A stretch of 51,397 nt of DNA from Bacilli bacterium (GTDB taxonomy: Bacteria; Bacillota_I; Bacilli_A; RFN20; CAG-826). The stretch is from the NCBI GenBank assembly GCA_024695105.1, contig JAILIV010000046.1, positions 1 to 51,397 of the forward strand. The letters run 5' to 3'. Shown piece after piece: positions 1,307 through 51,397 of the stretch. Below the pieces are notes generated by a model. It was not told the DNA's origin. It ran no database searches and was given only the letters and a program-made list of their open reading frames with translations. Both the position numbers and the translations under genes were made by a program. Position 1 is the first letter of the stretch; each line of letters opens with the position of its first letter.

Positions 1307-1321
1307 ATCTATTCCTCCTGA

Positions 1322-3427: not shown

Positions 3428-3428
3428 G

Positions 3429-35694: not shown

Positions 35695-36171
35695 TCAGGG
35701 ATCTTCGCGCTTTTTCGGGTCATCGAAGATCGTGGGCCGAGAGCCACCATCACGTAGGTTGGCCACGACGTCGATGCAATCCGTGACGGCGAATAGGAAA
35801 TAGTTCAACTGGGCACGTACTTCTTCGTAGTCTACATGGAGGCGATGCTGCAAAAGGGCGGTATGGACGAATTTGTTCCGTGCGCTGACGACTTGGTAGA
35901 TCAATTGCTGCTGGTAGCCTGTGATGTCGCCAATGTTCATGAGTTCTTCCGTCAATGAGCCTAGGGTCATGCAGCGAAGCGCGTCGGCGGTATCCACCCG
36001 TTCCGCCAAGTAACGGCGATATTCGTTCTCCCACTCTTGCACCGCCTCCATGGCCTCACCACAGGCCGCATAAGCGTCTTCCTTGCAGGTGAAGGGACGA
36101 GGAAAACGAGGCGAATACTCCTCCGGAATCGTCTCGGGGATGTCGATGATATGAAACGGAAGAAGCTCCAT
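35695..36171 (-). CDS. Hypothetical helical protein
   Basis: Only sizeable ORF filling the gap; start uncertain (36171, 36183 or 36213); contains TLGSL...ARNKFVH, an RNxxxH-like segment. Confidence 0.65.
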   Translation of the reverse strand: MELLPFHIIDIPETIPEEYSPRFPRPFTCKEDAYAACGEAMEAVQEWENEYRRYLAERVDTADALRCMTLGSLTEELMNIGDITGYQQQLIYQVVSARNKFVHTALLQHRLHVDYEEVRAQLNYFLFAVTDCIDVVANLRDGGSRPTIFDDPKKREDP

Positions 36172-36236
36172 CCTTGGTCTCATTATAACCTCATCGCCCC
36201 TACCCCAAGGCACTCAAAAAGGCGGATAATTCCCTT

Positions 36237-36917
36237 ATGGCGGAAATAACCCGAGGCAATTGCTATCGCACGGTCGCGCTTCTATCCACCCGAACGGAAA
36301 AAGGCGTGGACGTCGCCACCGGCGTGTTTTTGCTTGGAAAAGACGGGACGCCTTACCTATTCACCGCAGGGCATTTTGGAAAACACGTGAACGCGTCTAC
36401 CCTCGTGGAATTACCTAACGGACCCGGAATGAAGCCTTCGGTCTTCTCCCTGCTGGCGTTGACCCAAGGCAACCGCAAAGATTCCCCTTTGGCGGACCTA
36501 AGCGCCTTCCCCTTAACGGGTATCAAGCCACAGGAAAAGAAAATGTTCACCAGCCGTTTCATAACCTACGCGGCGCTTTTAGGCGACGGAGCCCATCCCT
36601 TAAACCGAGAAACCGAGCTTACCACAATGGGTTTCCCCGAAGGACTAGGCCATGACGTCAAAGGGTGCTTGGTCCCATTGTCTTTTCGCACTTACGCCTC
36701 CAGCGATTGCTTCTATCTTCGCGATGAGGCATACAAAGAACCCCTTCAAGTGTTCGCGTTGGAAAATGCCTCATTAGGTGGCTATTCCGGAGCGCCCGTC
36801 TTCGACCTTGGGAGCAAGAACAACGGGCTGGTGGGCTTTATCAAGGGGAACTTGGACGCCAAAGGCGGATCCATCGCCATCGTGACCCCAGCCATCTACG
36901 CCAAATACTTAATGTAA
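36237..36917 (+). CDS. Trypsin-like serine protease, no signal peptide
   Basis: Catalytic triad motifs LFTAGH, ADLSAF, GGYSGAPVF...GLVG. Confidence 0.8.
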   Translation: MAEITRGNCYRTVALLSTRTEKGVDVATGVFLLGKDGTPYLFTAGHFGKHVNASTLVELPNGPGMKPSVFSLLALTQGNRKDSPLADLSAFPLTGIKPQEKKMFTSRFITYAALLGDGAHPLNRETELTTMGFPEGLGHDVKGCLVPLSFRTYASSDCFYLRDEAYKEPLQVFALENASLGGYSGAPVFDLGSKNNGLVGFIKGNLDAKGGSIAIVTPAIYAKYLM

Positions 36918-37436
36918 TTAATGGAACGATAGGTATTGGTCGTCGCGTTCGGATAAGGAAATGCGCGCCTTCACCGTCTTCCCTTTTTTATTCGTCCCAA
37001 CCAAATAAACAGGGCCATCGAACTCCGAAAGATGAAACTCCACCACCGCTTCCGCGGTAGAAGAAGCGGGGACGTGCAACGAATAAATACCGTTTTCGGC
37101 ACGCACGAAGTCATTGGGTCCCTTGCGCATAATCGGCTCTGCGCCCAGTTCGCCAACGGTGATCCACCGCTTATTCTGTTTCTTGCACAAACGAAGGTCC
37201 GACAAAACGATTTCCTGAGGTTTGTCGTTTCCCATGGAAAGGCTAAACCGCACCACGGAATGGTCCAAATCGGCAATGCGCTTCGCCGTGATGTGAAGCT
37301 CGCCGCTGCGAACCAAGAAGAAAGCAAGACGCCCCAAAACGAAAATGGCGAATGTCGCGATCAACGAAATCGCGATGGGCAAGGCCGCGTTACCCGCCGT
37401 CGTGACGTAGTTTTGAAGAAGGACCGAAACCATCAT
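36918..37436 (-). CDS. Hypothetical protein with N-terminal TM anchor and beta-rich domain
   Basis: 172-aa ORF with hydrophobic ALPIAISLIATFAIFVLG; convergent with the protease. Confidence 0.7.
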   Translation of the reverse strand: MMVSVLLQNYVTTAGNAALPIAISLIATFAIFVLGRLAFFLVRSGELHITAKRIADLDHSVVRFSLSMGNDKPQEIVLSDLRLCKKQNKRWITVGELGAEPIMRKGPNDFVRAENGIYSLHVPASSTAEAVVEFHLSEFDGPVYLVGTNKKGKTVKARISLSERDDQYLSFH

Positions 37437-37535: not shown

Positions 37536-39353
37536 TTAACCCGGCTTATACGTCGTGCACTCCACCGTCTTTAAAAACGGCAGGTTCACCGACAAAACGA
37601 AGGAAGTATCGGCATTGGCTTGGAACTTATCGCCACGTCGTAACGCGGAAACGACGTTGGCGGCGTTGACGTTGGAAAGGCTCATTTTCCGAATCAGGGC
37701 GTTCACCGCCTGATCAAGGTTCAAGGCAGATTTGGTTTCCTTGACCTCCTGAACCATCTTGAGTTCCAAGGTTTTCAAAGGAATGGCGCATAGTTCTTTC
37801 GTCCCGGGCTTGAACAATGGGGCCGTCTCTCGGTAATAATTTGGGTCTTTCTTCGCAAGATCCGACTTCGGATCGCGCAACATGCGAAGATACGCCGACA
37901 TGATCACTTTCCATTCACCGGGGGAATACCTTTGGTCCGGACGGTAATGGGCGCCTTTGCTGTCGAACGTATCGATAAGGGCTTGGCGAACGAAAGATGG
38001 CAAATGGGTCCAGCGGACGTAAGCGGCGACGTGGACGTTTGCTTGGACTTGCGCGTCCGTTCCCTTAAATGGGAAGTTCCCTTTGAACGTTAGGTCGCGT
38101 TTTGCCTCATCATCGGCTGCGCCACCGCCGCCATAAGGGAACGCAATTCCCAACAGCAAAATGAAAATGCATACGGAAATTGCGTAATAATCACTGTATT
38201 TCTTACGGTAAAACTGATACGTTCCGCCCGCGTTCATCGCCGCCGCGTACACCTCGGGAGGGATGTAGCCCGCGGTGGCCATTCGGTTGATGTATTTGTC
38301 GATTTGCACCGCGTCGAAGTCCACGATGTATGGCTCGTTCTTTTTGCTGTCGTAACAAATATTGGTCAACTTGATGTCCCCGTTCACCACGTTCGCGTCC
38401 AGCATGTATTGGAAGGCGTCGCAGATCTTCACGATGGCGGAGACCAGTTTCTCTTTGGTTGGAAAACGATCCAAAAGCTTGTCGAGTTTGGTGATGCCAT
38501 CCAAGTCAGGGAAGGGGCAATTCCGCATCACGTAGCCAACGTCCTTGTACACCTTTCCGTTCCGCGCCTTCTTCGAAACCATCTCCAAAGGCCAAATGCA
38601 ATTGGGGTGGTTCATGGGACTGGCGCACATCATCCGGATCTTCTCTTGCTCCACGGCATAGAGTTGGCCTGGCTTGAAGTGTTTGATGACGAGGTTGGGG
38701 TCCTGCGAATGGTAAATGGCGCCAGAAGCACCTTTGTCGCTGATAAGGCCGGTGGCCTTGTACATGTTCCCTTCGCTTCCGGGGAAATCCGTGCCCGTCT
38801 CATCCGTTTCGTTTTGGGCCCATCCGGTATCGATTTGCTTTCCTTTGTCCGGAGGCGTCGCGGTAGAGGTTCCAAAGTATTTGAACTGCGCCGGGACGGA
38901 AGCGCTGGAAACGTGGGCCACGCTGATGCTGGTTTGGCTGGCGGTCGTCGGTTTGACTAGTTCCGTCTCAAACGGGTTGCGAATCAAAACCGTCTGGTGG
39001 CGTACCTTGGTGGAGATGCCCGCGTAGATGGCCGCTTTGTTCGGGTCGGTGGTCAACACGGCCAAGGCAAGCGTCGCGCCTTTTTCCGTCAGCGCGGCGG
39101 TAACGGGCTTTTGGTAACCCGCCATGACCAATGCGGGACTACCGCTTAAGATGGAGCGAAGTTGGCTTGCCCCGGGAGTGAGGTTGCCATTGGAATCCGC
39201 GCCGACGCTTTGGAGCAAAACGACGGAATGGGGCGGAAGGGACGCTTTGTGCTGCGACAGGAAAGACAGCAAGCCCGAATGGGCCAAAGATGTTTCATCC
39301 AGCAATAGGGAGAAACCTTTTTGGAGGGTGTCTTTCAGCAGGTCAATGCGCAT
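37536..39353 (-). CDS. TerY-triad (YegI-type) Ser/Thr kinase with degenerate PIN-like N-terminal domain
   Basis: GASGAIY, VIKHF, CIWP, VGYVM, VNGDIKLTNI, IVDFDAVQ, YIPPE, SDYYAISV..F.LL.G..FPY, LPSFVRQALIDTF, RYSPGEW, all typical of YegI-like kinases. Confidence 0.85.
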   Translation of the reverse strand: MRIDLLKDTLQKGFSLLLDETSLAHSGLLSFLSQHKASLPPHSVVLLQSVGADSNGNLTPGASQLRSILSGSPALVMAGYQKPVTAALTEKGATLALAVLTTDPNKAAIYAGISTKVRHQTVLIRNPFETELVKPTTASQTSISVAHVSSASVPAQFKYFGTSTATPPDKGKQIDTGWAQNETDETGTDFPGSEGNMYKATGLISDKGASGAIYHSQDPNLVIKHFKPGQLYAVEQEKIRMMCASPMNHPNCIWPLEMVSKKARNGKVYKDVGYVMRNCPFPDLDGITKLDKLLDRFPTKEKLVSAIVKICDAFQYMLDANVVNGDIKLTNICYDSKKNEPYIVDFDAVQIDKYINRMATAGYIPPEVYAAAMNAGGTYQFYRKKYSDYYAISVCIFILLLGIAFPYGGGGAADDEAKRDLTFKGNFPFKGTDAQVQANVHVAAYVRWTHLPSFVRQALIDTFDSKGAHYRPDQRYSPGEWKVIMSAYLRMLRDPKSDLAKKDPNYYRETAPLFKPGTKELCAIPLKTLELKMVQEVKETKSALNLDQAVNALIRKMSLSNVNAANVVSALRRGDKFQANADTSFVLSVNLPFLKTVECTTYKPG

Positions 39354-39355
39354 GT

Positions 39356-41692
39356 TTATTTTTTAACTAACCTTTTCGGGCGGCTATCCGGATGCACGAC
39401 AAGTCGGTTTGGCCCAGCCTCACTTAAGAAGCCATTTTCCATAAAAGCCCCAACAATTGCGAAGTAATCGTCATCAGTCAGGCCTTTTTTCTGTTTTCTC
39501 ATCCAAGACAGAAGCTCGGAAGGGAGCACGAACTGGGATTTGTTCTTCTTGTCGTGGGAAAGGCTGATCAGATAATCGGAAACCACATAGTAGAAATCTT
39601 TGTACGCAGGGTTTAACGCATACATGAGACGGTTTGCCCTTCGTTTTCCTTTTTCGTCGTATACATCCGTCTGCTCCCCGAGGAAATCAATTCTTCCCGT
39701 CAGGGCCAAATTTTGGAACCAGGAGCAAACCTCATCGTACTTAAGCGTGAGCTGGCTTCCGTGTTTATTGGAGTAGGCGGTGTTGTACGCGCTCCAAGCG
39801 AACGTGACGCAGTCATATTCCGCGGGCGCTTTATGGAATTTGCGAAAGAGACGCTGGAAAACGAACCGTTCCTCTTCCGGAAGCGACAACTTTAATTGCA
39901 ACAGCTTCTCATAAACGGCATCCCCGGTACCCTCGTCTTTCGTTTCGGCGAAGGCGGAAGCATCCGATAGCACTGCGTCAAGGGCTTTGTAATAGTCGTC
40001 ATCCAACGCCCATTTGTTGTTCTGCAACGTCCTCCAACCATGGAATAGCGCAAGCAAAACGCGACCCTGGACATGGCCCTTGTTTTCGATTTGTTCGCGG
40101 ATCCACGACTCAATGTCCTTGCGTTTTTCCGCCATGACCGCGAGATTCTCATAATAGGTGTCGCCGCCATTTGGGTTGACGCCATCGCCATACGCCTTCT
40201 TATCCGAAAGGATCGAACCCAAACAAAGGCGATAATCGCTCTCCTCCGCCCAAGAAAAGCTCTTTTCTTTTTCCAAACCGGCAAGAAGCGTCTTCTCGTG
40301 GATACGGCCATTGTAGTCGATGTGTTTCTGAATCCATTCTTCCAATTTGCCGTATTCCCGGGAAATCTTGATGCGCCCCGTGGCGCGCAAGACATGGTCC
40401 ACGGAGACGATGCGCCTTTCCTTTTTAAGTTCTTTGACGATTTCGGCGATTTCCATTTCGGTGAAAGGCTGACCCTCGCCTTGGAATAGATTGCCCAAGT
40501 CCCTTTCGTTGAGGATCTGCCCTCCGAAAAGGAGGCTAACGATGATGCGTTTGAACGTTTCCCTTTCCTGGGGTGTGTGCCCAACGGGCTGAATGGGAGT
40601 GGATTCCCCTTGAGGGATTTCCTTTTCCTCTTCCGCAGCTTCCGGCTCGGGTTCGGTGGTTTCCTCCGCCGCTTCTTCCTGGATATCGGGTTCGGGAGTG
40701 GCTTCCGGCTCAGGCTCTTTGGCGGGTTTTCCTTCGTCCAAATCCAAATCCGCGTAGGAAATAAGGTTGGCGTGTTCCGGATCCACCATCAAAACGGTCG
40801 AAATGTCATCTCCGCCATGCTTGACCGTGGACCGGCTGACGGGGCCATCGAAGAAGGACTGAAGGATCTTCTGAGCTTCTTCCGGCTGCTCGTTAATCGT
40901 GCAAAGGCAAAGCACGTTCCACACATAATTACGGACGCGAAGGTATTGACGGTCTTTCTCAATGAACGTGTTCTCGGGGCCATCGGAAATCAGGATCCAA
41001 GCGTCCATGGGTTCCTTGCCACGCTTTAAGCGAAGCTTCATGCCATAAGAGTTCTCATCCCCGGTGGCAATGTGACGAAGGTAGGCGCTGGCGGGGTATT
41101 CGGTGTAGTTGTGCTCCCCGTCCTTATCCTCCATCATGGCGATTTCCATCGCCCCTTCACGGGTGAGGCGCATGATATAACCGTCACCGATCTGCCCTAA
41201 GGCCCACTGATCGCCTCGACTCACGACGAACAAAAGCGTGCCGTTGAGCATGCGGAGGTAATAGATCATGTCGAGCTCGCCGGACTCGGCGATGGAAGGA
41301 TAGGCGGAGCAAGTCGCGACGAACTCGTCGTACTTCTCCTTCGTCTCCTCTTTGCCTTTCTCAAACATCTCCAGATGATCGTTGATGTAGGCCTTTTCGG
41401 CGTCGATGATCGCCTCGATGATGCCTTTGGCGACGGGGAAGGGGCTCTCGGAGTCCATGATGTCGTCGAAATGCTCGAGCAAATACTCCGACACGATGTC
41501 GACGGTCATCTGGGAGCCGATGTCGGAATACATGGAGCGGGAGCAGCCATCGCTTAAGACGATCGCGTTGGTGAAAACGCCATCGACCTCCTTGCTGCGG
41601 TAGGCGACGCTATCTTGACAAGGGAGGTTCTCCTCTTTATGGCTCAACCCTAAGGTCTTCGCCTTATTGAAACGAAAGGGGTTCTCGGCCAT
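39356..41692 (-). CDS. TerY-triad (YegK-type) PP2C phosphatase with acidic linker and repeated C-terminal domains
   Basis: GLSH....PCQD, IVLSDG, GS, TLLFV, QIGDG, ISDG, DDIS; RBS AAAGGAG. Confidence 0.85.
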   Translation of the reverse strand: MAENPFRFNKAKTLGLSHKEENLPCQDSVAYRSKEVDGVFTNAIVLSDGCSRSMYSDIGSQMTVDIVSEYLLEHFDDIMDSESPFPVAKGIIEAIIDAEKAYINDHLEMFEKGKEETKEKYDEFVATCSAYPSIAESGELDMIYYLRMLNGTLLFVVSRGDQWALGQIGDGYIMRLTREGAMEIAMMEDKDGEHNYTEYPASAYLRHIATGDENSYGMKLRLKRGKEPMDAWILISDGPENTFIEKDRQYLRVRNYVWNVLCLCTINEQPEEAQKILQSFFDGPVSRSTVKHGGDDISTVLMVDPEHANLISYADLDLDEGKPAKEPEPEATPEPDIQEEAAEETTEPEPEAAEEEKEIPQGESTPIQPVGHTPQERETFKRIIVSLLFGGQILNERDLGNLFQGEGQPFTEMEIAEIVKELKKERRIVSVDHVLRATGRIKISREYGKLEEWIQKHIDYNGRIHEKTLLAGLEKEKSFSWAEESDYRLCLGSILSDKKAYGDGVNPNGGDTYYENLAVMAEKRKDIESWIREQIENKGHVQGRVLLALFHGWRTLQNNKWALDDDYYKALDAVLSDASAFAETKDEGTGDAVYEKLLQLKLSLPEEERFVFQRLFRKFHKAPAEYDCVTFAWSAYNTAYSNKHGSQLTLKYDEVCSWFQNLALTGRIDFLGEQTDVYDEKGKRRANRLMYALNPAYKDFYYVVSDYLISLSHDKKNKSQFVLPSELLSWMRKQKKGLTDDDYFAIVGAFMENGFLSEAGPNRLVVHPDSRPKRLVKK

Positions 41693-41740
41693 GGCTGCTG
41701 CTCCTTTATTGAATAAATGAAAGTTAATGGATCGCGGGGA

Positions 41741-42409
41741 TTACCACTCGCCCCACTTCTTGATGCCCTCGGTATCCATCTTAACCTTATCCCCAGGGTT
41801 GGAAACGCCGATGGTGGCCAAGGATTTGGAATACCACTGGAAGAAGCCGACGATGTCGACCGCCTTGATGGGAGGCTTCTCGGAGAATTCCCTCAAGACG
41901 CCGGCGGCGCGCTGGGCGTCCTCGCCCAAGACGATGGGAAGGAAGGTGAGCTTTCTTGCGGAGACGAGGGACTGCACGCGGGAACGGGCGGACTCATAGG
42001 CGCTGGTGGGCTCACCATCGGAGAAGACGACCAAATGGGGTTGGTAGTAATCCAGATGGTTCTGCTTGTACATGTCCTTGCGCTGGTCAAGCAAATCCAG
42101 ACAGGTGTTGATGCCGGCGGCCAAATCGGTGCACCCACGGACGGGGCCGACTTTCGGGGCGCTGGTGCCCACGACGGTCTCGAAGTCGCGGACCACGCGG
42201 GCGTCGTCGGAGAAGTCCACGACGCAGACTTCGACCGAGTCCTTGGTCGCGTCTTCTTTGGCCAAGGCTTCATAGAGCTCGCGGATGCCTTCGTTCACCC
42301 TCGGAAGAAGGTCGTACATGGATCCGGAGACGTCCACGCAAAGGCAGACGGGGATACGGGCGGAAGTGTTGGTGATGAGATCGTCGTCACCGAAGTATTG
42401 ATTAGCCAT
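41741..42409 (-). CDS. TerY/YegL-type vWA protein (paralog 4)
   Basis: PVCLCVDVSGSM, VEVCVVDF, GCT, RK.MYK...DYYQP, SDGEP, FFQW; RBS AAAGGAG. Confidence 0.9.
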   Translation of the reverse strand: MANQYFGDDDLITNTSARIPVCLCVDVSGSMYDLLPRVNEGIRELYEALAKEDATKDSVEVCVVDFSDDARVVRDFETVVGTSAPKVGPVRGCTDLAAGINTCLDLLDQRKDMYKQNHLDYYQPHLVVFSDGEPTSAYESARSRVQSLVSARKLTFLPIVLGEDAQRAAGVLREFSEKPPIKAVDIVGFFQWYSKSLATIGVSNPGDKVKMDTEGIKKWGEW

Positions 42410-42442
42410 TTTTAACTCCTTTCAAATTGACTAAAGACTAAA

Positions 42443-43180
42443 TTACCAGGTGCCCCAGCCTCCCCCAGCGTCGGGGTCGGCGGTGGCGACGGGCTTACCG
42501 TCGTCGGGGTTGGAGATGACCAATTGCTCCATCGACTTGACGAGGAAGTCCATCAATTGGTCGAACTGCAGGCCCCGCAGGTGCATGGGGGCGTGCTTGG
42601 GGGAAAGCGGGGAGAGGATATTGGTGATCTCGCGCCACTTGGCCTCGTCGTTATCCGAGCCGATCACGACCGGGAAGATCGCGAGCTTGCCGTTATTGGC
42701 GGCCTCGGAAGTGCGCTGGGCGGTCGCGGGAAGGTCCTCTTGGTCGCCAGGCTTGCCGTCGGTCACCAAAACCAAAACGGGCTGGAAGTAATCCACGTGG
42801 TTGTTCTTAAAATCGAGTTTGCGCTGCTCCAAGATGTCCAAGGCGAGGTTCACGCCATGGGCAAGGGCGGTGCCGCCGCGGGCCTCAAGATTGACCTCGG
42901 GGTCTTCTTCCTTGCACAGGGCGAAGTCGCGGACGACCTGGAATTCGCTGTTGAACGTGACGATGGCGAATTCCACGCTGTCGACCAGACCATTCGACTC
43001 GCGGATGTACTTGTGCAGCTCGTTGATGAACGTGTTCAGCTCCTCAATGGGCTTCTTCCCCGTGGTCGGGTCGGTTTTGGCCATCGAACCGGAGATGTCG
43101 ACGCAAACGCAAAACGGTACGCGGTTCGAAGTGTTGGTGACGAGATCGTCGTCGCCGAAGTACGGATTGTTTTCAGACAT
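42443..43180 (-). CDS. TerY/YegL-type vWA protein (paralog 3)
   Basis: PFCVCVDISGSM, VEFAIVTF, GGT, RK.DFK...DYFQP, TDGKP; RBS AAGGAGG fixes the start at 43180. Confidence 0.9.
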   Translation of the reverse strand: MSENNPYFGDDDLVTNTSNRVPFCVCVDISGSMAKTDPTTGKKPIEELNTFINELHKYIRESNGLVDSVEFAIVTFNSEFQVVRDFALCKEEDPEVNLEARGGTALAHGVNLALDILEQRKLDFKNNHVDYFQPVLVLVTDGKPGDQEDLPATAQRTSEAANNGKLAIFPVVIGSDNDEAKWREITNILSPLSPKHAPMHLRGLQFDQLMDFLVKSMEQLVISNPDDGKPVATADPDAGGGWGTW

Positions 43181-43194
43181 ATCGTCCTCCTTCG

Positions 43195-43887
43195 CTACCA
43201 TTCTCCCCATTCCGCCGAACCGAGATCCCCCGGTACTTCAGGGGCCCTGGACACAGGGGTTTGCAGAAGAATGGAAGCCAGATCGTGGGGTTGGACCGGG
43301 GTTTGTCCCAGACGTCCTTGCAGGATGTGGAGCGACCGCTCGTCGAATCCGATGTCGAGTACGAGGAGATCGCGTTTTCGCTCTTCTTTAAGGGTGAGGA
43401 GCGCGTCGGATGGGGTTTCGTCGTTACGGAGGATGCCGTCGGTGACCAGCAGGAAGCATGGGTCGCCATGGGGGATGCCTTGGTCACAATAGGTCCCCTT
43501 TCGTATCCTCCAGGCATCCGCGGCGACGCTGATGCCGCCGATGAGGTTGCCTTCGTCTCCGATGGCGTTGTCCGGGAGGGGCAACGAATCGAGTTCGGAG
43601 AGGGGGACGAACCGCTGATGGAGGCTGGGGCTTTGCTTGGCTAGTGCCACGCAGATTTCCACTTCCATCGTCGGAAGGACGGACCGTTTTATTTCCTCCA
43701 GGGCTTCCATCAAGGCCTGATTGGCCCGGTCAAGGACCGTGGTGACCTCCCCTTCCATTTCTTGGAAGCGTTGGCCGTCCCGTTCCAGGATGCGTCCCGT
43801 CGGGGTCCCGCCGACGCAAGTGAGCATCGAGGCGCTGGCGTCGATGACCACGCATAGGGGGATCACGGGTTTGGTCGTCTCTTCCAT
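43195..43887 (-). CDS. TerY/YegL-type vWA protein (paralog 2, divergent)
   Basis: PLCVVIDASASM, VEICVA, RKGTY...GDP, LLVTDG; MIDAS Thr replaced (GNL); ends WGEW. Confidence 0.8.
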   Translation of the reverse strand: MEETTKPVIPLCVVIDASASMLTCVGGTPTGRILERDGQRFQEMEGEVTTVLDRANQALMEALEEIKRSVLPTMEVEICVALAKQSPSLHQRFVPLSELDSLPLPDNAIGDEGNLIGGISVAADAWRIRKGTYCDQGIPHGDPCFLLVTDGILRNDETPSDALLTLKEERKRDLLVLDIGFDERSLHILQGRLGQTPVQPHDLASILLQTPVSRAPEVPGDLGSAEWGEW

Positions 43888-43889
43888 GC

Positions 43890-44630
43890 CTACCAATCCG
43901 TCCAATCCACGACGGACTTCGGGATGTCGATCTTCGTCGGGGCCTTGCCGCTGCCCATCGATTCGGAGATGGAGGAGCTAAGCCAACGGAAGAGGTTTCG
44001 ATATCCCGCGCCCGAGAAGTTCTGGACCGGGTTGGAAGTGAATTTCTGGAGGCAGGCGAGGGCGTCTTTGTCCTTCACCTCCTCGATGGAGCGTACGTCT
44101 TTGTCGCCCCCGCAGAGCACCGCGAGCACGGTGATCTTTTCGGCTTTTTCGAGGTCGCGCACCTGCTTTTGGGCTTTCTTGACGTTCTCGACGGCCTTAT
44201 CGCCCCAAGGCTTGCCGTCGGTCATGATCATCAACCATGGACGGTAATAGTCCACGTGGTTGTCTTTGTACTTTTGCTTACGCTGGTCGCATAGGCCAAG
44301 GCCATAAAGCACGCCCGCGCCCAAATCCGAAGAGCCGTTGAGCTTGGGTTTGATTTTGGAAATGTCGAAGGAGTCCACGGTCGCGAAGTCGTGGAGGACG
44401 GTAGGTTTGTCGTTAAAGCCCACGACGCAGATCTCCACGCTGCTTTCGACCCGTTCGTCCGCCTTGATGCAGCGGAGCAATTCCTGAAGGCCGCCCAAAA
44501 GCTCGTCGAAGCGGTTGACTTCGTCCCCGTCCTTGTGGGTCATGGAGTGGGAAGTGTCCACGCAGATGCACAAAGGAACACGCGCGGACGCGTTGATGAT
44601 TAAATCGTCGTCTCCGAAATACTGGTTCAT
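43890..44630 (-). CDS. TerY/YegL-type vWA protein (paralog 1)
   Basis: PLCICVDTSHSM, VEICVVGF, GSS, RKQKYK...DYYRPW, MTDGKP, LFRWLSSS; RBS AGGAGG. Confidence 0.9.
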   Translation of the reverse strand: MNQYFGDDDLIINASARVPLCICVDTSHSMTHKDGDEVNRFDELLGGLQELLRCIKADERVESSVEICVVGFNDKPTVLHDFATVDSFDISKIKPKLNGSSDLGAGVLYGLGLCDQRKQKYKDNHVDYYRPWLMIMTDGKPWGDKAVENVKKAQKQVRDLEKAEKITVLAVLCGGDKDVRSIEEVKDKDALACLQKFTSNPVQNFSGAGYRNLFRWLSSSISESMGSGKAPTKIDIPKSVVDWTDW

Positions 44631-44639
44631 GGGTCCTCC

Positions 44640-47600
44640 TTATGTGGTTTCCACTTTGATCAAGTTGGCGCGGAAGAAGCGGGCGAAGGCGTTGGGCGCG
44701 GAACCAAACTTGCCGTGCCTCCGCCATTCCGGATGAGAGGCGTCGAGATGCTTCGCCGTCTCCTTGGTGCACTGCACCACCGCTTTCTTGCTGCCCTTGA
44801 ATATATATTTTCCCTCAATGTCGACGTCGTTCAATAGACGTACGTATATCTCATGGTCGATTTCGGCGAAACACGCTTCGCCCAAGACGACATTCCCCTC
44901 AAACGTCAACGCGGTCTCATACTTCGGGTTGCGTTTCAATTGGATGGAGGCAAAGCAATTCGGGCCTAAGACGCAATCGCCAAAGAAGGTGATGTCGCAG
45001 ATGCTCGCCCCCTCGAAACAAGTCCCTTCCGCCATGTCGATCCCACCCGCTTTGGCGCAGAAGACCACGTCCTTCTCAAAGCCGGTCTTCGCGAACGCCT
45101 TATTGCCGATACGCAAACGGTCGTTGGAACCAAAGGTGACCTCCGAAGAGAAGCTTGCCTCGGAGAAGGCCCTCTCGCCAATTTCCTTCACTTCCGCGAA
45201 CTCGGTGGCTTCCTCGCTGAAAGCGATGTTGCCGCCAAGGAACGCTTGGCTTCCGATGACGCGAAGTCCCTTTAGTTCTTTGGAGTCCAGTTTCACCCCT
45301 TTGGAAACGCCAGAGAAGGCATAGTCCCCAATCTCCCGTAACGGCGCGCCGAGGAAATGGACTTCCAAGGGGCACGCCCAATCCTTAAAGGCGGACGCGA
45401 CGAGCTTCTTGCAGTTCCCAAACGCCACGTAATTCAGACGCGGGAACTTCCCATAAGCGGAGAACGGCTTGGCGGTATTGGGCACGAGCAAGGTCTTTAA
45501 TTGGGACAAAGGGGAGAGGAAAGCCAGGTTCGGATCCAAATAGGGGCAATCGATCAACGTCAGCTCTTCCACGCCTGGGGCTTTGGCGAAGACGTTGGGG
45601 TCCATCCCCACGAGGTTCTCGCCAAGCAGCGTCACCCTGCGCAATTTGGGGGCGCGGAAACGGAAGTCGAAAACGCCGGGGTCCTCCTGTTCCAAAGTCA
45701 GGGTAAGGTCCGTGAGTTTCCTAAAGCCTTCCAAGAAAGATATGGCGTCCAACGGAAGCGTGGCGGTGAACGTCTCCACTTCCGGCATTGACCCTAAGGC
45801 CTCGGTAAGCTCATCCGCGGTAACGGCGACCAACCCGCCCAAATAAAGTTCCCGGACGCCGGTGCAGCCAGAGAACGCACCCCGTTCCAACGCGACCTCT
45901 TCGCCTAGGGACAACCGCTCCAAGGAAACGAGGTTCTCAAACGCGCCTCGGCGGACCGTGGTGCGGCCTTCGACCTCCACGGCGCGGATGGGTGTGACGC
46001 GTTCCCCGTTAAAGGCCCCGGCGCAGATTTCCTCCGCGCCCAATAGACGCAGGGAATCCGATGCGCCCTCGTAATCCAATACATGGACCAAACGGTTTTG
46101 GAAATAGACGCAAGACCCATCGATCGTCGCGGAAGGGGCGGCGATGCCGAATTGGCTGGGCTTTTCATAGGCGACGTTAGGCAAAGCGCGTGCCCCCAAA
46201 ACGTCCAACATTTTCCCGATGTGGAACGAAGTGACGTGGGCGGAGCGGAACGCTTCCTCACCCAAACGCTTCAGTTTCGGCAAATCCACGTCGCCGCATA
46301 CGGCGGAAACGAACGCGCGTGGGCCAATGGATTCCATGTCCTGGAAGAAGCCTTGGGGCAACGTGCCGCCAAAACGGAAAAGCGCCTCCTCGCCCACTTC
46401 GACCGGGGAAGGCATCGATAGTTCCATGGAACCCACGACGCCGGCGAAAGCCCGCGCGGGAATGGAACCGCCATAACGCCCGATCTCCAGGCGACGGACG
46501 CCAGAAAGCCCCTCGAACATAGACGGGACCAGCGAAGGGCAACCATCGATGAGAACCGTCGCGTCCTTGAACGCGTCTGGGGAACGGAACACTTCCCGAA
46601 TCGGTTGGGACAAAGCGGCGAGATGGACATCGGACAGCATGGAAGCTTCCGCCAACGCGAAATCCCCATACCCAAGTTTCGGACAGCCCGAAAGGTCTAG
46701 TTCCCGTAACGCGGTTTTTTCCAAAAGGGGCATCGTGTCACGGGGAAGGGAAACAAGGTTAGGCGCGGCCAAAACGAAGCGGCGCAAACGGGGCAAAGAA
46801 ATCGCCTTTGGAGGGAGTTTTGCGGACGAAGTGGCGAGTTCAAGGTCGGAAATCTCATCGAATCCGTCAAACATTTCCGCGCAAAGCTCTTCTTGGGAAA
46901 GACGGACTTCCCCTAGTTTTGCGCTATCGGGCAAAAGCGCGGACAAGGCTTTTCCCTTAAGGAACGAGGTCGCCCCTAGACGCAAGGAACGCAGGTTCTT
47001 CGCGCCTACAATGGGACCAACGAAAGTAACGCCGGCGGCAACCTCTAGGCTTTCTAAGCCAGTGAGCCCATCCAACGCGTTCTCCCCCACTTCGACGCCA
47101 GAAGGCAAAGATAGGGAACGAAGGGAAGGAAGGTTGGATAAGGCCCGTTCGCGAATACGCCGTATGGTTGGGCCGATGGCCACGCTTTCGGGATAGTTTT
47201 GGATCGGCAAGGCTTTGAGCAACTCGTCCTTATGGCAAAGGCACCCATCCGCGACGAAGAACGCGCCGGGATCGAGCTGGATCGCCTCGGGAGAGGAGAA
47301 CACATTGCCTTCGAAAGCATCGAGCTCATTTTGACGCAAGGAAGCGCCAAGGTGAACGTATGTGAGATGCGTATCCGCGAAGCAACGGGAATGCAATTCG
47401 ACGATTTCGGGAAGTTTGGCCTCCGTTAGCGCGGTTCCGGCGAAGGATTCTTTCCCCGCAATGGCGAGCCTACGCAAGTCGACCCGTAGGGATTTGCATC
47501 CCTTAAAGGCGCCTTCCCCGGCTTTCTCGATGGGGTCAAGGCACTCGATGGCGCAATCCTCGAAGCCATGGAACGCAAAAGCGGGAACGTCAAGTCCCGC

Positions 47601-50600
47601 AAGGCGAATCGAACGCAGCGTGGCGGGAACGTAGTAGCATTCCTCACCCAAGGACACCTCTTTCGTCCTTTCGCCCCCCATCATGGAGAACTTCGCGGCG
47701 AGCATAGAACCGCCAAGCCCTTCGACGCGGAGGGTCAATTCCTCTAACGAAAGCATTCCTTCGAAGGCGCTTCCCCCAATGGATTTCGCCTCGGGAAGGG
47801 AAAGGCGTTGCAACGAAGAGCAACCGGAGAAACAGAAATCCCCCACCGTTTCCACTAGGGACATGTCGGGGACTTCCCGTAAAGAAGCGCAGTTGGAGAA
47901 GGCGTTTTCGCCTAGTGCCTTCAACGGCTTTCGGGCGGTCACTTTCTTCAGGCGGTCCATATAATCCAGGAAATGGTCCGAAACGAAATCGCTTAGCAAC
48001 TCGACCTCCTCGATCGGCGAATCCGGGAAGGCACCGCTAAGCGAAGTGCCCAAATCCTCGCAGGACACATGACGCAGATGGGTCATGCCGCCATAGCTCG
48101 ACATCCCAAAGAAAGGCGCATCCTCGATGTGGACGCTTTCGATGCTTTCCTTTAGGCCCGCCAATAAAGATGGATGGTAATCGGCGATGCCGTGGCCAAA
48201 CAAAAGCGAACGCACGTCCTTGGAGAAAGCCACGAAGGCGATGCCGTCGTTTTTGTCCACCAAGAACGGAACCTGGGGATGGATGTAGACGCAGCTTTGC
48301 TCATGGGGATCGATGGAGGAATAGTCGCACTCGCGGAACGCCTCCTTCCCGATTTTGGAAAGGTTGGGTCCGAGTTGAATACGGGTGCAATGGACTTCAG
48401 TCAGCGCCCCGTCTTCGATTTCCGCCACGTCCAAGCGCAAGGTCTCCACGTCTAATAGACAGAGGGGGGTGGAAAGAAGCTTCGGGGTGCGCACCGTGAA
48501 CGTGGTGATCGTGGCCGTCGTTCCCGCGCCGTGGAAGGCATCCAAGGCAACGGGGGCGGAAGAGATGAATTCCGCCTGCTCGATGCGACAGGCCTCGAAG
48601 CTTAGGCCCTTGCTGTCTTTATGGACCAAGCGCAAGGAGCCGATCGCGCATCCGGTGATGGACACGCCTTGGAAAGAGCACCCCTCAAACTCAAGGGACT
48701 CCATGCGCTCGCCGTGGAGTTGGACTCCGTTTAACGCGCAACGGCGCAATGTCACGGACTTCGCGCCGAAGAAGGTTCCGCTATTTAAGGTGGAATCCAA
48801 GATGGTTAAGGATTGCACCTCGACCTTTTGGCCAAGCACGGTTTGCAGGAACGCGGGGTCGATGGTCTTGGTTTCCAGCGCCTCGATCTTGCCCTGCAAT
48901 CCCAGGGGTACGGCTTTGCTGGCGTCATGGATCGTGACTTTCTTCGCGGAGCAGCCTTGGAAGGCGTCGGGGGAAAGGCGGGAAACGTCCTCGATGACCA
49001 ATTCCTCGACTGCGCACCTTTGCCACGCCCCGGTGGCGAACAAAGGCCCATCCGAGCCAATGACCAGACGGGAAATCCGGAGATCGTGCAAAACCCCTTT
49101 GGAAACCGAGGCAAAGCCTTTCAAGGTCTCGGGGCGGAAAGAGGAAGGATCCAGGATGAGTTTGACTTCCTTGCCATCGGGGCTAAGAAGCAAACCGTCC
49201 TTATGACGGATAAATTTGTTTCCGGGGTCGATCTGAACGGTGGCCCCATGGGGATCAAAGGAGGGGTCGAAGGCTTCGACTTCGGGGCCGATGAGGAGTT
49301 GTTCCACGCCTTGGATGCGCACGCAAAGATCCGCGGGGATGCATTTCGCGGCTTTGACCCGAAGCGCGCGGGCAAAGGCGCCGGAGGGAAGCGGCTGGGA
49401 AGGTTTGATCTCGGCGATCCCCAACCGTTCCAACTTTGGGGAATAGTACTTATCCCCGTTGACCGAAAGCTCCACCGCCCCAGGGAAGGATTCCCGGCCG
49501 AAAAGCCCGAAATAGGAAAGCCCTTCGTTATTGGAAAAGGAGGGTAACAGAAGCATCTTGATATTGGAGCATCCCTTGAATACGCCTGGCTTAAAAAGTA
49601 CCGCCTCGGACGTGATGTTGACTTCACGTAGCTTCTCATTGGAAGCAAAACACCCCGATTTAAAAGCGCCTTGACTGAGGGTAAGCGTCTCCAAACCACA
49701 CCCCGCAAAGGCGTCATCCGCCACGAAGGGGGGTAGCGGACCGAAGTCGACGGTTTGCAAAGAAGAACAATCGCGGAAGGCGTTAGGCCCAATGGTCGCC
49801 TGGCCCGTGAAGGATAGCTTCCTTAGGGACTTGTCCATCGCGAAAGCGCTTGGCCCGATCTTCGCGGCATGGAAGGAAAGGGAGGGAATCGGGGCACGCA
49901 GGAAGGCTTCCTTGCCGATTTCGATGTCGCCGTTAAAGGAAACGGACGCCAATTTGGCGCACCCATTGAACGCCCAGTCCCCCACTTTGCCAGGCCCCAA
50001 AGCCAGTTTGGCTAGCCCGGAATTGGAGAAAGCGCCCGCGCCAAGGTTTGGGAAGGCGACGCCGGCTTTAAGAAGGTTCGGGTTATTCGCGAAAGCGCCA
50101 TCCCCGACCGAGGTTTTGCCTGGCAAGGTGACTTCCGATAGATTGGAGCATTCTTGGAACGCGTCTTTTCCTATGGAACGCACGTCCGCGGGAAAGGACA
50201 ACGCCCCCACTTTGGGGCAATGCTTGAATGCGCCCTCGTCATAAAATTTGGTTTGGGAAAACATCGCGCCGCAGGGGACGTTAGTGCCCGAGAAGGCGTA
50301 TTTGCCTACGGATTGGATCCCTTGGCGCGAAATCAGATGGAAACCCTGGGATCCCGCGACCATGTAATCCGGGATGTCAGTGATTCCGGAAGGGAGGTAA
50401 ACCTCCGCGAGGTTCGGGCAATCGTTGAACGCCCTGCTTCCGATGCGGCGGACCGAATTTGGGACCACGACGTATCGAACGCTTCCGTTGTTGCGGAACG
50501 CCCCATCGTCGATGGAAGCCGTCCCAAAGGGAATGATGGCCACGCTGGATTTGCCGTTATAGCCCTTAAGGGTTTTGCGGTCGGCGCTGAAGGCAAAGTC

Positions 50601-51023
50601 GGCATCGTTTTGAAGCACGGCGCCCAAACTACGGAACGCATCGATGTGCAACGGGCCCGCAAGGCTTTGGTAGTCCTCGTTTTCCACCGGATAGCCCATG
50701 AAGGCGAGAAGGCGGTCGAGGAAATGCCCGTAAACGACGAAAGGAACGTTGTCTTGGTTCAACTTGGCGACGGCCTTTTGGACCTCCGCCACCACGCGGT
50801 CCTCGCTTTTGCTCTTCCCCGCCGCGACGACGTTCCCGAAAAGGTCTTTGTAATGGACATCGAGGAAATCCAACGTGTGCAGAAGCGAATCGTCAGAAAA
50901 ATCGCCCTGCATGTAATGCTCCCTGGCCCGCATCAAAACGGCATGGACGAAAGAAGCGTCCCCGGGGAGATTGCCGAGCTCGCGGAACAGTGTTTGCAGA
51001 AGCACGTTCATGTCCAGCGCCAT
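44640..51023 (-). CDS. Giant (2127 aa) BspA/TpLRR-type leucine-rich-repeat protein without signal peptide or anchor
   Basis: Many IG..AF..C..L..V.LP units (e.g. IGSRAFNDCPNLAEVYLP, IGKDAFQECSNLSEVTLP, VGDFCFSGCSSLQRLSLP) along the whole length; helical, non-hydrophobic N-terminus; stop 9 nt before the first vWA gene. Confidence 0.9.
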   Translation of the reverse strand: MALDMNVLLQTLFRELGNLPGDASFVHAVLMRAREHYMQGDFSDDSLLHTLDFLDVHYKDLFGNVVAAGKSKSEDRVVAEVQKAVAKLNQDNVPFVVYGHFLDRLLAFMGYPVENEDYQSLAGPLHIDAFRSLGAVLQNDADFAFSADRKTLKGYNGKSSVAIIPFGTASIDDGAFRNNGSVRYVVVPNSVRRIGSRAFNDCPNLAEVYLPSGITDIPDYMVAGSQGFHLISRQGIQSVGKYAFSGTNVPCGAMFSQTKFYDEGAFKHCPKVGALSFPADVRSIGKDAFQECSNLSEVTLPGKTSVGDGAFANNPNLLKAGVAFPNLGAGAFSNSGLAKLALGPGKVGDWAFNGCAKLASVSFNGDIEIGKEAFLRAPIPSLSFHAAKIGPSAFAMDKSLRKLSFTGQATIGPNAFRDCSSLQTVDFGPLPPFVADDAFAGCGLETLTLSQGAFKSGCFASNEKLREVNITSEAVLFKPGVFKGCSNIKMLLLPSFSNNEGLSYFGLFGRESFPGAVELSVNGDKYYSPKLERLGIAEIKPSQPLPSGAFARALRVKAAKCIPADLCVRIQGVEQLLIGPEVEAFDPSFDPHGATVQIDPGNKFIRHKDGLLLSPDGKEVKLILDPSSFRPETLKGFASVSKGVLHDLRISRLVIGSDGPLFATGAWQRCAVEELVIEDVSRLSPDAFQGCSAKKVTIHDASKAVPLGLQGKIEALETKTIDPAFLQTVLGQKVEVQSLTILDSTLNSGTFFGAKSVTLRRCALNGVQLHGERMESLEFEGCSFQGVSITGCAIGSLRLVHKDSKGLSFEACRIEQAEFISSAPVALDAFHGAGTTATITTFTVRTPKLLSTPLCLLDVETLRLDVAEIEDGALTEVHCTRIQLGPNLSKIGKEAFRECDYSSIDPHEQSCVYIHPQVPFLVDKNDGIAFVAFSKDVRSLLFGHGIADYHPSLLAGLKESIESVHIEDAPFFGMSSYGGMTHLRHVSCEDLGTSLSGAFPDSPIEEVELLSDFVSDHFLDYMDRLKKVTARKPLKALGENAFSNCASLREVPDMSLVETVGDFCFSGCSSLQRLSLPEAKSIGGSAFEGMLSLEELTLRVEGLGGSMLAAKFSMMGGERTKEVSLGEECYYVPATLRSIRLAGLDVPAFAFHGFEDCAIECLDPIEKAGEGAFKGCKSLRVDLRRLAIAGKESFAGTALTEAKLPEIVELHSRCFADTHLTYVHLGASLRQNELDAFEGNVFSSPEAIQLDPGAFFVADGCLCHKDELLKALPIQNYPESVAIGPTIRRIRERALSNLPSLRSLSLPSGVEVGENALDGLTGLESLEVAAGVTFVGPIVGAKNLRSLRLGATSFLKGKALSALLPDSAKLGEVRLSQEELCAEMFDGFDEISDLELATSSAKLPPKAISLPRLRRFVLAAPNLVSLPRDTMPLLEKTALRELDLSGCPKLGYGDFALAEASMLSDVHLAALSQPIREVFRSPDAFKDATVLIDGCPSLVPSMFEGLSGVRRLEIGRYGGSIPARAFAGVVGSMELSMPSPVEVGEEALFRFGGTLPQGFFQDMESIGPRAFVSAVCGDVDLPKLKRLGEEAFRSAHVTSFHIGKMLDVLGARALPNVAYEKPSQFGIAAPSATIDGSCVYFQNRLVHVLDYEGASDSLRLLGAEEICAGAFNGERVTPIRAVEVEGRTTVRRGAFENLVSLERLSLGEEVALERGAFSGCTGVRELYLGGLVAVTADELTEALGSMPEVETFTATLPLDAISFLEGFRKLTDLTLTLEQEDPGVFDFRFRAPKLRRVTLLGENLVGMDPNVFAKAPGVEELTLIDCPYLDPNLAFLSPLSQLKTLLVPNTAKPFSAYGKFPRLNYVAFGNCKKLVASAFKDWACPLEVHFLGAPLREIGDYAFSGVSKGVKLDSKELKGLRVIGSQAFLGGNIAFSEEATEFAEVKEIGERAFSEASFSSEVTFGSNDRLRIGNKAFAKTGFEKDVVFCAKAGGIDMAEGTCFEGASICDITFFGDCVLGPNCFASIQLKRNPKYETALTFEGNVVLGEACFAEIDHEIYVRLLNDVDIEGKYIFKGSKKAVVQCTKETAKHLDASHPEWRRHGKFGSAPNAFARFFRANLIKVETT

Positions 51024-51032
51024 ATTGAAGTT

Positions 51033-51041
51033 ATTTTACCA
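51033..51041 (-). promoter_or_regulatory. Extended -10 promoter of the LRR-TerY operon
   Basis: Minus strand TG-G-TAAAAT, 9 nt upstream of the LRR ATG; no SD. Confidence 0.5.
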
Positions 51042-51178
51042 ACCGCTTTCATATAATGAAACAACGTGGAACCATCTTTTTGCGGAAAACGTAACCGAGG
51101 ACCTTAAAGAAATGCCAAAACCCAGTGGTATCGGGCAAAGAAACCCATTAAAATAAAGAAACCCCAGGAGGCATTTTA

Positions 51179-51397
51179 ATGACCGACATCACCAAGAATG
51201 AGAATTTCATTCAGGCCCAGGAAGCGTATGAACAAATCCAGGGCATCCTCAATTCAACCGTTGACTCCTATCTCGAGAAGAGCGGAGACACCGACTTCAA
51301 GAGGGACATCTTCCTCCGTCAGTATGACTACATGCTGCAGACCATGCTCCTCGCCGTCGCCCTCGCCGATGGCAAGGCTTCCGCAGAAGAAATCGAA
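51179..51397 (+). CDS. Partial protein with TerB-like motif
   Basis: RBS AGGAGG; MTDITKNENF...MLQTMLLAVALADGKASAEEIE, open to the window edge; A.ADG....E is the TerB-family signature. Confidence 0.6.
   Translation, partial: MTDITKNENFIQAQEAYEQIQGILNSTVDSYLEKSGDTDFKRDIFLRQYDYMLQTMLLAVALADGKASAEEIE

Follow-up and report, generated by a model that had tools for sequence, protein, structure and literature searches.

The window analysed here, 51,397 nt in length, is the entire contig C66 (GenBank JAILIV010000046.1, assembly GCA_024695105.1) of a metagenome-assembled genome (MAG) of a Bacilli bacterium (GTDB lineage Bacillota_I; Bacilli_A; RFN20; CAG-826). This genome, G000, comprises 1.48 Mb on 88 contigs and is 85% complete. 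The window encodes a giant leucine-rich repeat (LRR) protein at the head of an enlarged TerY-P operon. TerY-P is described in the account of PMC11090510 as a triad of a von Willebrand factor A (vWA) protein, a PP2C phosphatase and a kinase, tied to Ter stress genes and restriction-type systems.

Seven intact, ATG-started open reading frames (ORFs) lie on the minus strand between positions 37536 and 51023, as called by an ORF script run on the window. The LRR giant (44640-51023, 2127 aa) is followed by four vWA genes: vWA1 (43890-44630, 246 aa), which is next to the LRR gene, vWA2 (43195-43887, 230 aa from its ATG), the most diverged paralogue, vWA3 (42443-43180, 245 aa from its ATG) and vWA4 (41741-42409, 222 aa). 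A PP2C gene (39356-41692, 778 aa) and a gene for a Hanks-type Ser/Thr kinase (37536-39353, 605 aa) complete the operon. The intergenic gaps from the LRR gene to the kinase gene are 9, 2, 14, 33, 48 and 2 nt, and Shine-Dalgarno-like sites of the GGAGG or AAGGAG type precede vWA1, vWA3, vWA4 and PP2C. A preliminary description of the window had already listed seven co-oriented genes over 13.5 kb with these gaps and no internal terminator, and the script returned the same genes and spacing throughout. A consensus scan found 33 terminator-like sites on both strands of the window (23.8 +/- 5.0 in shuffled sequence); judged by the coordinates of these 33 hits, none falls inside an intergenic gap of the operon.

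The giant matches Pfam LRR_5 in seven stretches (E = 5.2e-96) and also LRR_8 (E = 1.5e-20), and its repeats are of the BspA type. The nearest NCBIfam model is that of the adhesin HupY/LrrG, which it matches with 83 bits against a cut-off of 1250. An AF2 model of residues 1-260 (pLDDT 77) places helices at residues 5-132, followed by LRR strands. The N-terminal domain of about 130 aa is thus predicted to consist of seven helices; it is weakly conserved among the giants of related loci and has no Foldseek match. The LRR part of the same model matches TpLRR (PDB: 6mlx, E = 3e-5) as well as 4fs7 and 4gt6. The LRR gene does not contain long near-identical DNA repeats. A repeat scan recovered only families of 18-39 nt at 72-89% identity, and recent cassette shuffling is unsupported because these repeats are short and imperfect.

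The preliminary description took the giant to be intracellular, and the relatives introduced below agree with this. The N-termini of all five known giants are hydrophilic with no export signal seen, and none of the four giants that were scanned has a hydrophobic segment. Hydropathy was assessed with a simple Kyte-Doolittle scan (19-aa window, threshold 1.6) rather than with a trained predictor. The giants are apparently cytoplasmic.

Three of the vWA proteins are recognised by Pfam, vWA1 and vWA4 as VWA_2 (E = 1.7e-6 and 1.1e-8) and vWA3 as VWA (E = 1.8e-8). The same three align by blastp with YegL of E. coli (E = 4.9e-18 for vWA1, 4.7e-22 for vWA3 and 5.7e-20 for vWA4) at 25-29% identity over nearly the full length. 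The PADLOC TerY model matches vWA3 weakly (E = 0.002) and does not match the other three. All four proteins carry a DxSxS metal ion-dependent adhesion site (MIDAS), which reads DTSHS, DASAS, DISGS and DVSGS from vWA1 to vWA4, and they end in the tails DWTDW, EWGEW, GWGTW and KWGEW, respectively. vWA2 has no Pfam match; we consider it a diverged vWA protein because it retains the MIDAS and the C-terminal W-x-x-W and matches the vWA2 of a related locus (in the genome G041, see below) at E = 2.6e-22. Among the 21 vWA proteins examined, the DxSxS MIDAS is kept in 18 and an aromatic/acidic tail is found at the extreme C-terminus in 20 (for example W-G-E-W, W-x-E-I or W-L-D-I-D-V). The tail is a family trait, since the single-vWA triads of the class end similarly. 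The 5' ends of vWA4 (42317-42403), vWA3 (43082-43168) and vWA1 (44541-44627) share 74-79% DNA identity over 87 nt, a stretch that encodes the conserved N-terminal Y-F-G-D-D-D-L...MIDAS. Complex prediction on the four vWA proteins with vWA4 as the partner scored 0.00 and 0.04, where the mark was 0.34 and the controls were left unfolded, and does not bear on whether they interact.

The phosphatase (Pfam PP2C_2, E = 1.8e-18) has its catalytic domain at approximately residues 1-305. An acidic linker connects this domain to a C-terminal extension that varies and is absent from the 462-aa protein of G041. The metal-binding aspartates D27, D48-G49, D170-G171, D237-G238 and D295-D296 are invariant in seven relatives. 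The kinase (Pfam Pkinase, E = 5.3e-9) aligns by blastp with E. coli YegI (E = 8.5e-7). Its K224, G325-D326-I327-K328, N331, D345, D347 and E367 are likewise invariant in seven relatives and correspond to the lysine, the catalytic loop, the DFG-type aspartate and the APE glutamate. From these intact catalytic residues both enzymes are predicted to be active. Gly325 precedes the catalytic Asp326, making this a non-RD kinase. The preliminary description had recognised a vWA-PP2C-kinase set of the TerY-P and YegL-PphC-YegI kind, and the matches to YegL (E = 5e-18 to 5e-22) and YegI bear this out.

The AF2 model of the kinase (pLDDT 77) comprises an alpha/beta N-terminal domain (residues 1-133), the kinase domain, helices at 415-508 and an alpha+beta unit at 510-604. 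Foldseek with the whole model returned matches to the kinase domain alone (PknB and other kinases) and none to the N- or C-terminal domains. The C-terminus does not match the PADLOC STK_OB model, and no CxxC pairs were seen by eye; other PADLOC kinase models match the protein weakly. A kinase profile search of 1.84 billion representative proteins recovered 735 at E <= 1e-30. The N-terminal domain appears specific to this system, being present in 20 of the 91 best representatives examined, and the C-terminal domain occurs family-wide. For ten of these 20 proteins the origin was traced, in every case to a metagenome or a MAG; several are encoded on contigs of 14-118 kb.

The arrangement recurs in other genomes. 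A scan with a PP2C pattern (one genome per species) found one close locus, in the goat-rumen Bacilli MAG G041. There, the gene order is that of the window: a divergent TerB-like gene, an LRR_5 giant (1737 aa), four vWA genes, PP2C and kinase. Each gene of G000 has its best blastp match in the G041 gene at the same position, with identities of 32% for the LRR giant, 56% for vWA1, 26% for vWA2, 61% for vWA3, 60% for vWA4, 39% for PP2C and 43% for the kinase. Word-index searches returned three relatives with the PP2C, two besides itself with the kinase, and only itself with the N-terminal 170 aa of the LRR giant.

Genome samples were searched with a profile built from the eight vWA proteins of G000 and G041. 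The four-vWA array was found in 3 genomes of the class sample (401 genomes; G000, G206 and G276), in 3 of the sample of the window's family (301 genomes; G000, G206 and G809, plus fragments on two contigs of ~1.5 and 2 kb) and in 1 of the 49 sampled genomes of the family of G276. None of the 24 other genomes of the window's genus has the system, as judged with the kinase query and the vWA profile. A phylum-wide sample and a sample of the G041 family overlapped largely with the genomes above and brought no further array. No relative was found among JGI metagenome contigs with the vWA1-pair or PP2C-alignment patterns, or among viral contigs with the kinase alignment. The full vWA array is hence known from five genomes: G000, G041, G276, G809 and G206. 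G041 belongs to the window's family, and G276 to a second family of the same class. Shared ancestry inflates this count, because all instances belong to one class and four of the five to one family.

An LRR_5 giant (1737-2127 aa) lies upstream of the array and on the same strand in four of the five genomes (G000, G041, G276 and G809). The linkage is therefore not unique to the window's genome; uniqueness was the outcome that the preliminary description had named as counting against its reading. G276 encodes on one strand a TIR_2-methyltransferase, an LRR_5 giant (2030 aa, E = 3.5e-181), four vWA proteins, PP2C and kinase. In G809, an extra 434-aa gene sits between the LRR_5 giant (2120 aa) and the vWA genes, of which four are clear and two degenerate; PP2C and kinase follow. 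In G206, 167 nt separate the start of the array from the end of its contig, and the gene for a 2443-aa LRR_5 giant stops 154 nt short of the end of a different contig. No overlap between these contig ends was found on testing, leaving their adjacency unproven; G206 is compatible with an LRR-headed array. Ten ordinary TerY-P-like loci of the class have one or two vWA genes each, and none of their genes matches the window's giant by blastp. We conclude that the LRR-TerY-P cluster is a rare, sporadic and accessory feature of uncultured, small-genome Bacilli of gut and rumen.

The giants align collinearly along almost their entire length, with 21-42% identity per 100-aa bin. Across the ten genome pairs, identity is 23-33% for the LRR protein, 33-44% for PP2C and 30-45% for the kinase. 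The LRR protein thus diverges faster than the enzymes, a comparison of the kind that the preliminary description had proposed as a check. At this level of sequence divergence the loci are old. A maximum-likelihood tree groups the LRR-proximal vWA proteins of all five genomes in one clade (support 92/91), and by this grouping the LRR-proximal vWA is a dedicated, position-specific paralogue. A second paralogue lineage spans both subgroups of loci (support 89/93). Several rows of the tree, including vWA2, are long-branched and 12 of its 31 inner branches are unresolved. Because paralogue clades span both subgroups, the tree shows the array to predate their split.

The operon faces a divergent gene across an intergenic region of 156 nt (51024-51179). 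The 5' part of this gene lies at 51180-51397 on the plus strand, and the remainder is carried by contig C63, with which the window end shares an identical overlap of 141 bases. The preliminary description had called it TerB-like. A divergent gene is indeed present and is 46% identical to its counterpart in G041; the assignment is weak because the TerB match (E = 4.8e-5, 24.1 bits) sits just under the Pfam cut-off of 24.4, and the gene occurs in only two of the five genomes (G000 and G041). A perfect palindrome, TTTCAT-ATA-ATGAAA, occupies positions 51047-51061 of this intergenic region, where it precedes the LRR start codon by 24-38 nt. No motif common to the LRR/TerB intergenic regions of G000 and G041, the palindrome included, was found. 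The GC content of the operon (0.55-0.59) is slightly higher than that around it (0.51-0.54).

At the other end, 99 nt downstream of the kinase gene, the minus strand encodes a small protein of 172 aa (36918-37436) with an N-terminal hydrophobic helix (segment 13-44). It is 43% identical to the gene at the same position in G041, has no family match in Pfam or PADLOC, and no counterpart was matched in the loci of G276, G206 or G809. It is possibly an eighth gene of the system, restricted to the G000/G041 subgroup.

The flanks of the LRR operon differ in every one of the five genomes and consist mostly of housekeeping genes. Two congeners of G000 share a flank (sugar transferase and gpmA) that adjoins other genes instead. 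Some neighbours are of a conflict type, among them the TerB-like gene of G000 and G041. In G276, the gene for the TIR_2 and methyltransferase protein lies 109 nt upstream of the LRR gene on the same strand (Pfam E = 1.4e-12; PADLOC ThsB-like, E = 5e-7). Near the two parts of the G206 locus are a PDC-M03A candidate (E = 3.7e-25) and a pVip-like radical-SAM gene (E = 1.9e-16).

Beyond the TerB-like gene, contig C63 of G000 carries on its minus strand (641-7936) a three-gene block that is conserved in G041. It encodes a soluble TraG/VirD4-like ATPase (601 aa, T4SS-DNA_transf, E = 8e-35), a 287-aa protein (p287) that Atlas places with AAA+ folds and that has no P-loop, and a 1534-aa protein that faintly matches RyR and has four hydrophobic helices in its N-terminal part. 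Other type IV secretion families were not seen beside the TraG-like gene in the flanks examined. Searches with p287 did not find it in G206, G809 or G276. It does occur in four other genomes without a vWA match at E <= 1e-10, and in G366 and G071, the two contexts that were read, the pair of p287 and TraG-like genes is adjacent without the LRR system and has other partners. We considered this block as a part of the LRR system and rejected it on these grounds. As p287 was not found in three of the genomes and the pair occurs without the LRR system, the block is a separate module, and it may be an undescribed one of its own. The core of the LRR system is the LRR giant, the vWA array, PP2C and the kinase.

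Several other features of these genomes were recorded in passing. A ClpP-family protease gene (C63 7999-8565, Pfam E = 1.2e-57) adjoins the gene for the 1534-aa membrane protein; it has no match at E <= 1e-20 in five near-complete congeners and may belong to the accessory region. Positions 35695-36917 of the window, between the operon and the sugar-transferase gene, hold two orphan genes with neither a Pfam match nor a G041 counterpart. One, on the plus strand, encodes 226 aa with a GYSGAP motif that by eye is reminiscent of trypsin-like proteases; the other encodes 172 aa and has a faint PADLOC match to Cas13-ApeA (E = 0.0058). A second kinase/phosphatase cluster occupies positions 1-8091 on the minus strand. 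It encodes an AAA_2 (Clp/Cdc48-type) ATPase (6067-8091), a PP2C (5360-6067), a 644-aa protein (3429-5363), a Pkinase (1322-3499) and an Ala/Gly-rich ORF of 435 aa that runs out of the window start. G276 encodes a 2063-aa protein without a Pfam or PADLOC match approximately 9.5 kb upstream of its LRR operon (C12 7479-13670). In G206, a 586-aa MORN-repeat protein (C24 6604-8364, Pfam E = 3.2e-31) directly follows the kinase and may be an extra component there. Another conserved type of cluster in the class (G091, G152, G107, G076 and G045) encodes a giant of 1026-1860 aa, a ~590-aa protein, vWA, PP2C, kinase and a further vWA. In the G091 type these are followed by about eight genes, including two for ~190-aa proteins and a third vWA gene, and the cluster looks Ter- or CoCoNuT-style.

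We interpret the operon as an expanded form of the TerY-P phospho-switch in which the LRR protein acts as sensor or scaffold. It most likely serves in conflict with phages or mobile elements, and we give this reading a probability of about one half. The evidence thereby supports in part the preliminary description, which had inferred an LRR sensor wired via vWA adaptors to a kinase/phosphatase switch. We infer the sensor role of the LRR protein, the contacts between the proteins, the direction of signalling and the anti-phage function. The cytoplasmic BspA-type solenoid would serve as the input or as a scaffold, the four vWA paralogues, with their intact MIDAS and conserved tails, as adaptors, and the non-RD kinase and PP2C together as an on/off switch. 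A foreign protein bound by the LRR surface could change the vWA assembly and so release kinase activity. The kinase would then phosphorylate proteins of the host or the invader, or an effector encoded nearby (in one genome, for example, the TIR-methyltransferase), and infection would be stopped; PP2C could hold the system off or reset it. A more specific version of this proposal is a bacterial cytoplasmic pattern-recognition machine. In it, the giant would bind phage or other foreign proteins, a vWA hetero-oligomer linked by tail-to-MIDAS contacts would signal to a PP2C-checked non-RD kinase, and the effectors would be exchangeable, with the TIR-methyltransferase as the effector of one lineage. 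This version is offered tentatively, as a possible rather than a probable extension.

A number of observations weigh against a phospho-switch dedicated to conflict. No core protein reaches a PADLOC defence model, and the LRR protein, PP2C and three of the vWA proteins have no PADLOC match. Most genes flanking the LRR operon are housekeeping genes; only 5 of 42 scanned flanking proteins match any PADLOC model, and one of these is a generic ABC ATPase. The LRR identity is evenly low, without hypervariable patches on a conserved frame, and the faster divergence of the giant may reflect the behaviour of repeat proteins and not necessarily diversifying selection. The non-RD loop is nothing specific to the system, because ordinary TerY-P kinases of the class also have it (six of six with a locatable motif, among nine comparison kinases). 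The BspA-type LRR_5 proteins with solved structures carry cell-surface annotations, so the giant may be exported by a non-classical route.

Three rival explanations were weighed. The operon could be a Ter-type phosphorylation switch in stress or physiology that responds to a metal, a metabolite or envelope stress and in which the LRR giant scaffolds endogenous clients. TerY-P was first proposed as a set of metal-sensing phosphorylation switches of the Ter stress network (summarised in PMC11090510), a TerB-like gene is divergent in two of the genomes, and the YegL-PphC-YegI set of E. coli is chromosomal and is treated in two preprints whose abstracts report biochemical characterisation only. 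The housekeeping character of the flanks fits as well. A physiological switch sits less easily with a distribution that is patchy even within the genus, with genomic contexts that differ, with the TIR and candidate defence genes that neighbour the LRR operon in two genomes, or with a fast-diverging giant repeat protein, which would be unusual for housekeeping signalling. We regard a stress switch as rather unlikely. The possibility that the giant has an unrelated function and merely sits beside an ordinary TerY-P operon, through chance or descent from one ancestor, gains something from the restriction of all instances to one class and of four of the five to one family. The linkage has nevertheless outlasted divergence (giant 23-33%, enzymes 30-45%) and relocation in two families. 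It also comes with a gap of only 9 nt in the window and a dedicated LRR-proximal vWA lineage, and the ten ordinary TerY-P loci have one or two vWA genes and no gene matching the giant. Mere adjacency is therefore very improbable.

The giant could instead be the cargo of the system, namely a BspA-like adhesin exported by a non-classical route, with the vWA proteins as chaperones or assembly factors and the kinase and PP2C as a post-translational checkpoint. A threonine-phosphorylation pathway acts as such a checkpoint for some type VI secretion systems. The cell-surface annotation of LRR_5 structures in the PDB and the adhesin model that is nearest in NCBIfam point this way, the TraG/VirD4-like ATPase and the 1534-aa membrane protein lie next door in G000 and G041, and the conserved vWA tails could be recognition signals. 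Yet the scans of the giants revealed neither a signal peptide nor an anchor or hydrophobic segment. The pair of TraG-like and AAA-like genes lies outside the core, given that searches for p287 in G206, G809 and G276 did not find it and that G366 and G071 have the pair without the LRR system, and the flanks showed no further secretion components. A cargo role for the giant is accordingly improbable in our view, more so than a stress switch. The expanded TerY-P switch with an LRR sensor or scaffold remains our preferred interpretation.

LRR domains are classic recognition modules of plant and animal immunity; to our knowledge, few bacterial immune sensors have been linked to them. Gut microbes have many BspA-type LRR proteins, which are generally taken to be surface adhesins. 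If the interpretation is right, an intracellular giant of this type that is conserved and wired to a kinase and a phosphatase would change how the family is read; in the pattern-recognition version it would also provide a first function for an intracellular member. TerY-P is a validated anti-phage system whose sensing and mechanism are unexplained, and here its switch is coupled to a candidate input module and four adaptor paralogues, which makes both the sensing and the role of the vWA proteins testable. The models of PADLOC-type defence finders miss the LRR-TerY-P cluster, and specialists would not expect TerY-P to be associated with a giant intracellular LRR protein.

The core of the operon resembles the TerY-P triad in its vWA proteins with a MIDAS, its PP2C_2-type phosphatase and its Hanks-type kinase, all encoded in a tight operon. 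A commentary on Gao et al. 2020 (PMC7699616) and the summary in PMC11090510 credit one form of TerY-P with protection against T7-like phages. Ordinary triads of the class have two further traits in common with the operon, namely the aromatic/acidic C-terminal vWA tail and the non-RD loop of the kinase. Unlike the triad, which has one vWA protein, the loci described here encode four to six, and an LRR_5 giant of 1737-2443 aa heads the operon. The TerY-P kinase is described with a C-terminal zinc ribbon or OB fold (PMC11090510). The kinase here has an extra N-terminal alpha/beta domain, and neither a zinc ribbon nor an OB fold was recognised at its C-terminus. PADLOC recognises TerY-P as three genes (TerY, PP2C and STK_OB); the seven-gene operon of the window is not recognised in this way.

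E. coli YegL, PphC (YegK) and YegI are direct relatives by sequence, YegL matching vWA1, vWA3 and vWA4 and YegI the kinase domain. PphC, a 253-aa phosphatase, matches the window's PP2C weakly (E = 0.002). The E. coli set differs in having one vWA gene, no LRR gene and the Hsp70-like YegD adjacent. Kinase-PP2C-vWA trios also occur with GAP1-N2 GTPases, and the sections of Kaur et al. 2020 that deal with them describe no LRR link (PMC7159879).

The giant shares its fold with BspA-type LRR_5 proteins such as TpLRR (PDB: 6mlx), the Bacteroides and Faecalibacterium proteins 4fs7 and 4gt6 and PcpA (4cp6), with Foldseek E values of 3e-5 to 2e-2. These PDB entries are titled as cell-surface proteins and contain chains of ~140-400 residues, compared with 2127 residues here. 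The giant further differs from the BspA surface proteins in that it has no detected signal peptide or anchor, carries an unmatched helical N-terminal domain and is followed by a kinase/phosphatase operon.

Parallels to eukaryotic receptors are more distant. XA21-XB15, FLS2-KAPP and TLR-IRAK are outlined in PMC2553837 as combining an LRR receptor, a non-RD kinase (Cys or Gly before the catalytic Asp) and a PP2C brake. The system here likewise pairs an LRR module and a non-RD kinase with a PP2C as the presumed negative regulator, and one of the five loci has a TIR, as a separate gene. It differs from the plant and animal receptors in being built from separate, apparently cytoplasmic proteins, with LRR and kinase never in one chain, a BspA-like LRR and vWA proteins in place of death or TIR adaptors. 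The likeness is one of analogy and implies no common descent. If the more specific, pattern-recognition version holds, the system would be a convergent prokaryotic counterpart of XA21-XB15 or TLR-IRAK.

The preliminary description knew of no account of an LRR giant joined to TerY-P, and our literature searches, which covered few subscription journals, found no published description either. The closest parallel comes from CoCoNuT operons. In some of them, duplicated TerY-like vWA proteins flank EssC-like, SpoVK-type (with an LRR element) and VirB4-like ATPases, as outlined in PMC11090510. Extended Type III-A CoCoNuT operons thus share with the present loci a duplication of TerY-like vWA proteins, and they combine it with ATPases of the FtsK/HerA superfamily and a SpoVK-type AAA+ protein that carries a fused LRR element. 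G000 and G041 offer a parallel, as a TraG/VirD4-like ATPase and the AAA+-like protein without a P-loop adjoin the LRR operon. The window and 14 kb of the adjoining contig contain no Pfam families for McrB/McrC, the helicase CnuH, HEPN or CARF. The LRR operon also departs from CoCoNuT in having a free-standing BspA-type giant and four vWA genes in tandem as opposed to two that flank an ATPase. The extended CoCoNuT operons, with their McrBC-type cores, are nonetheless the nearest published theme to the LRR-headed TerY-P cluster.

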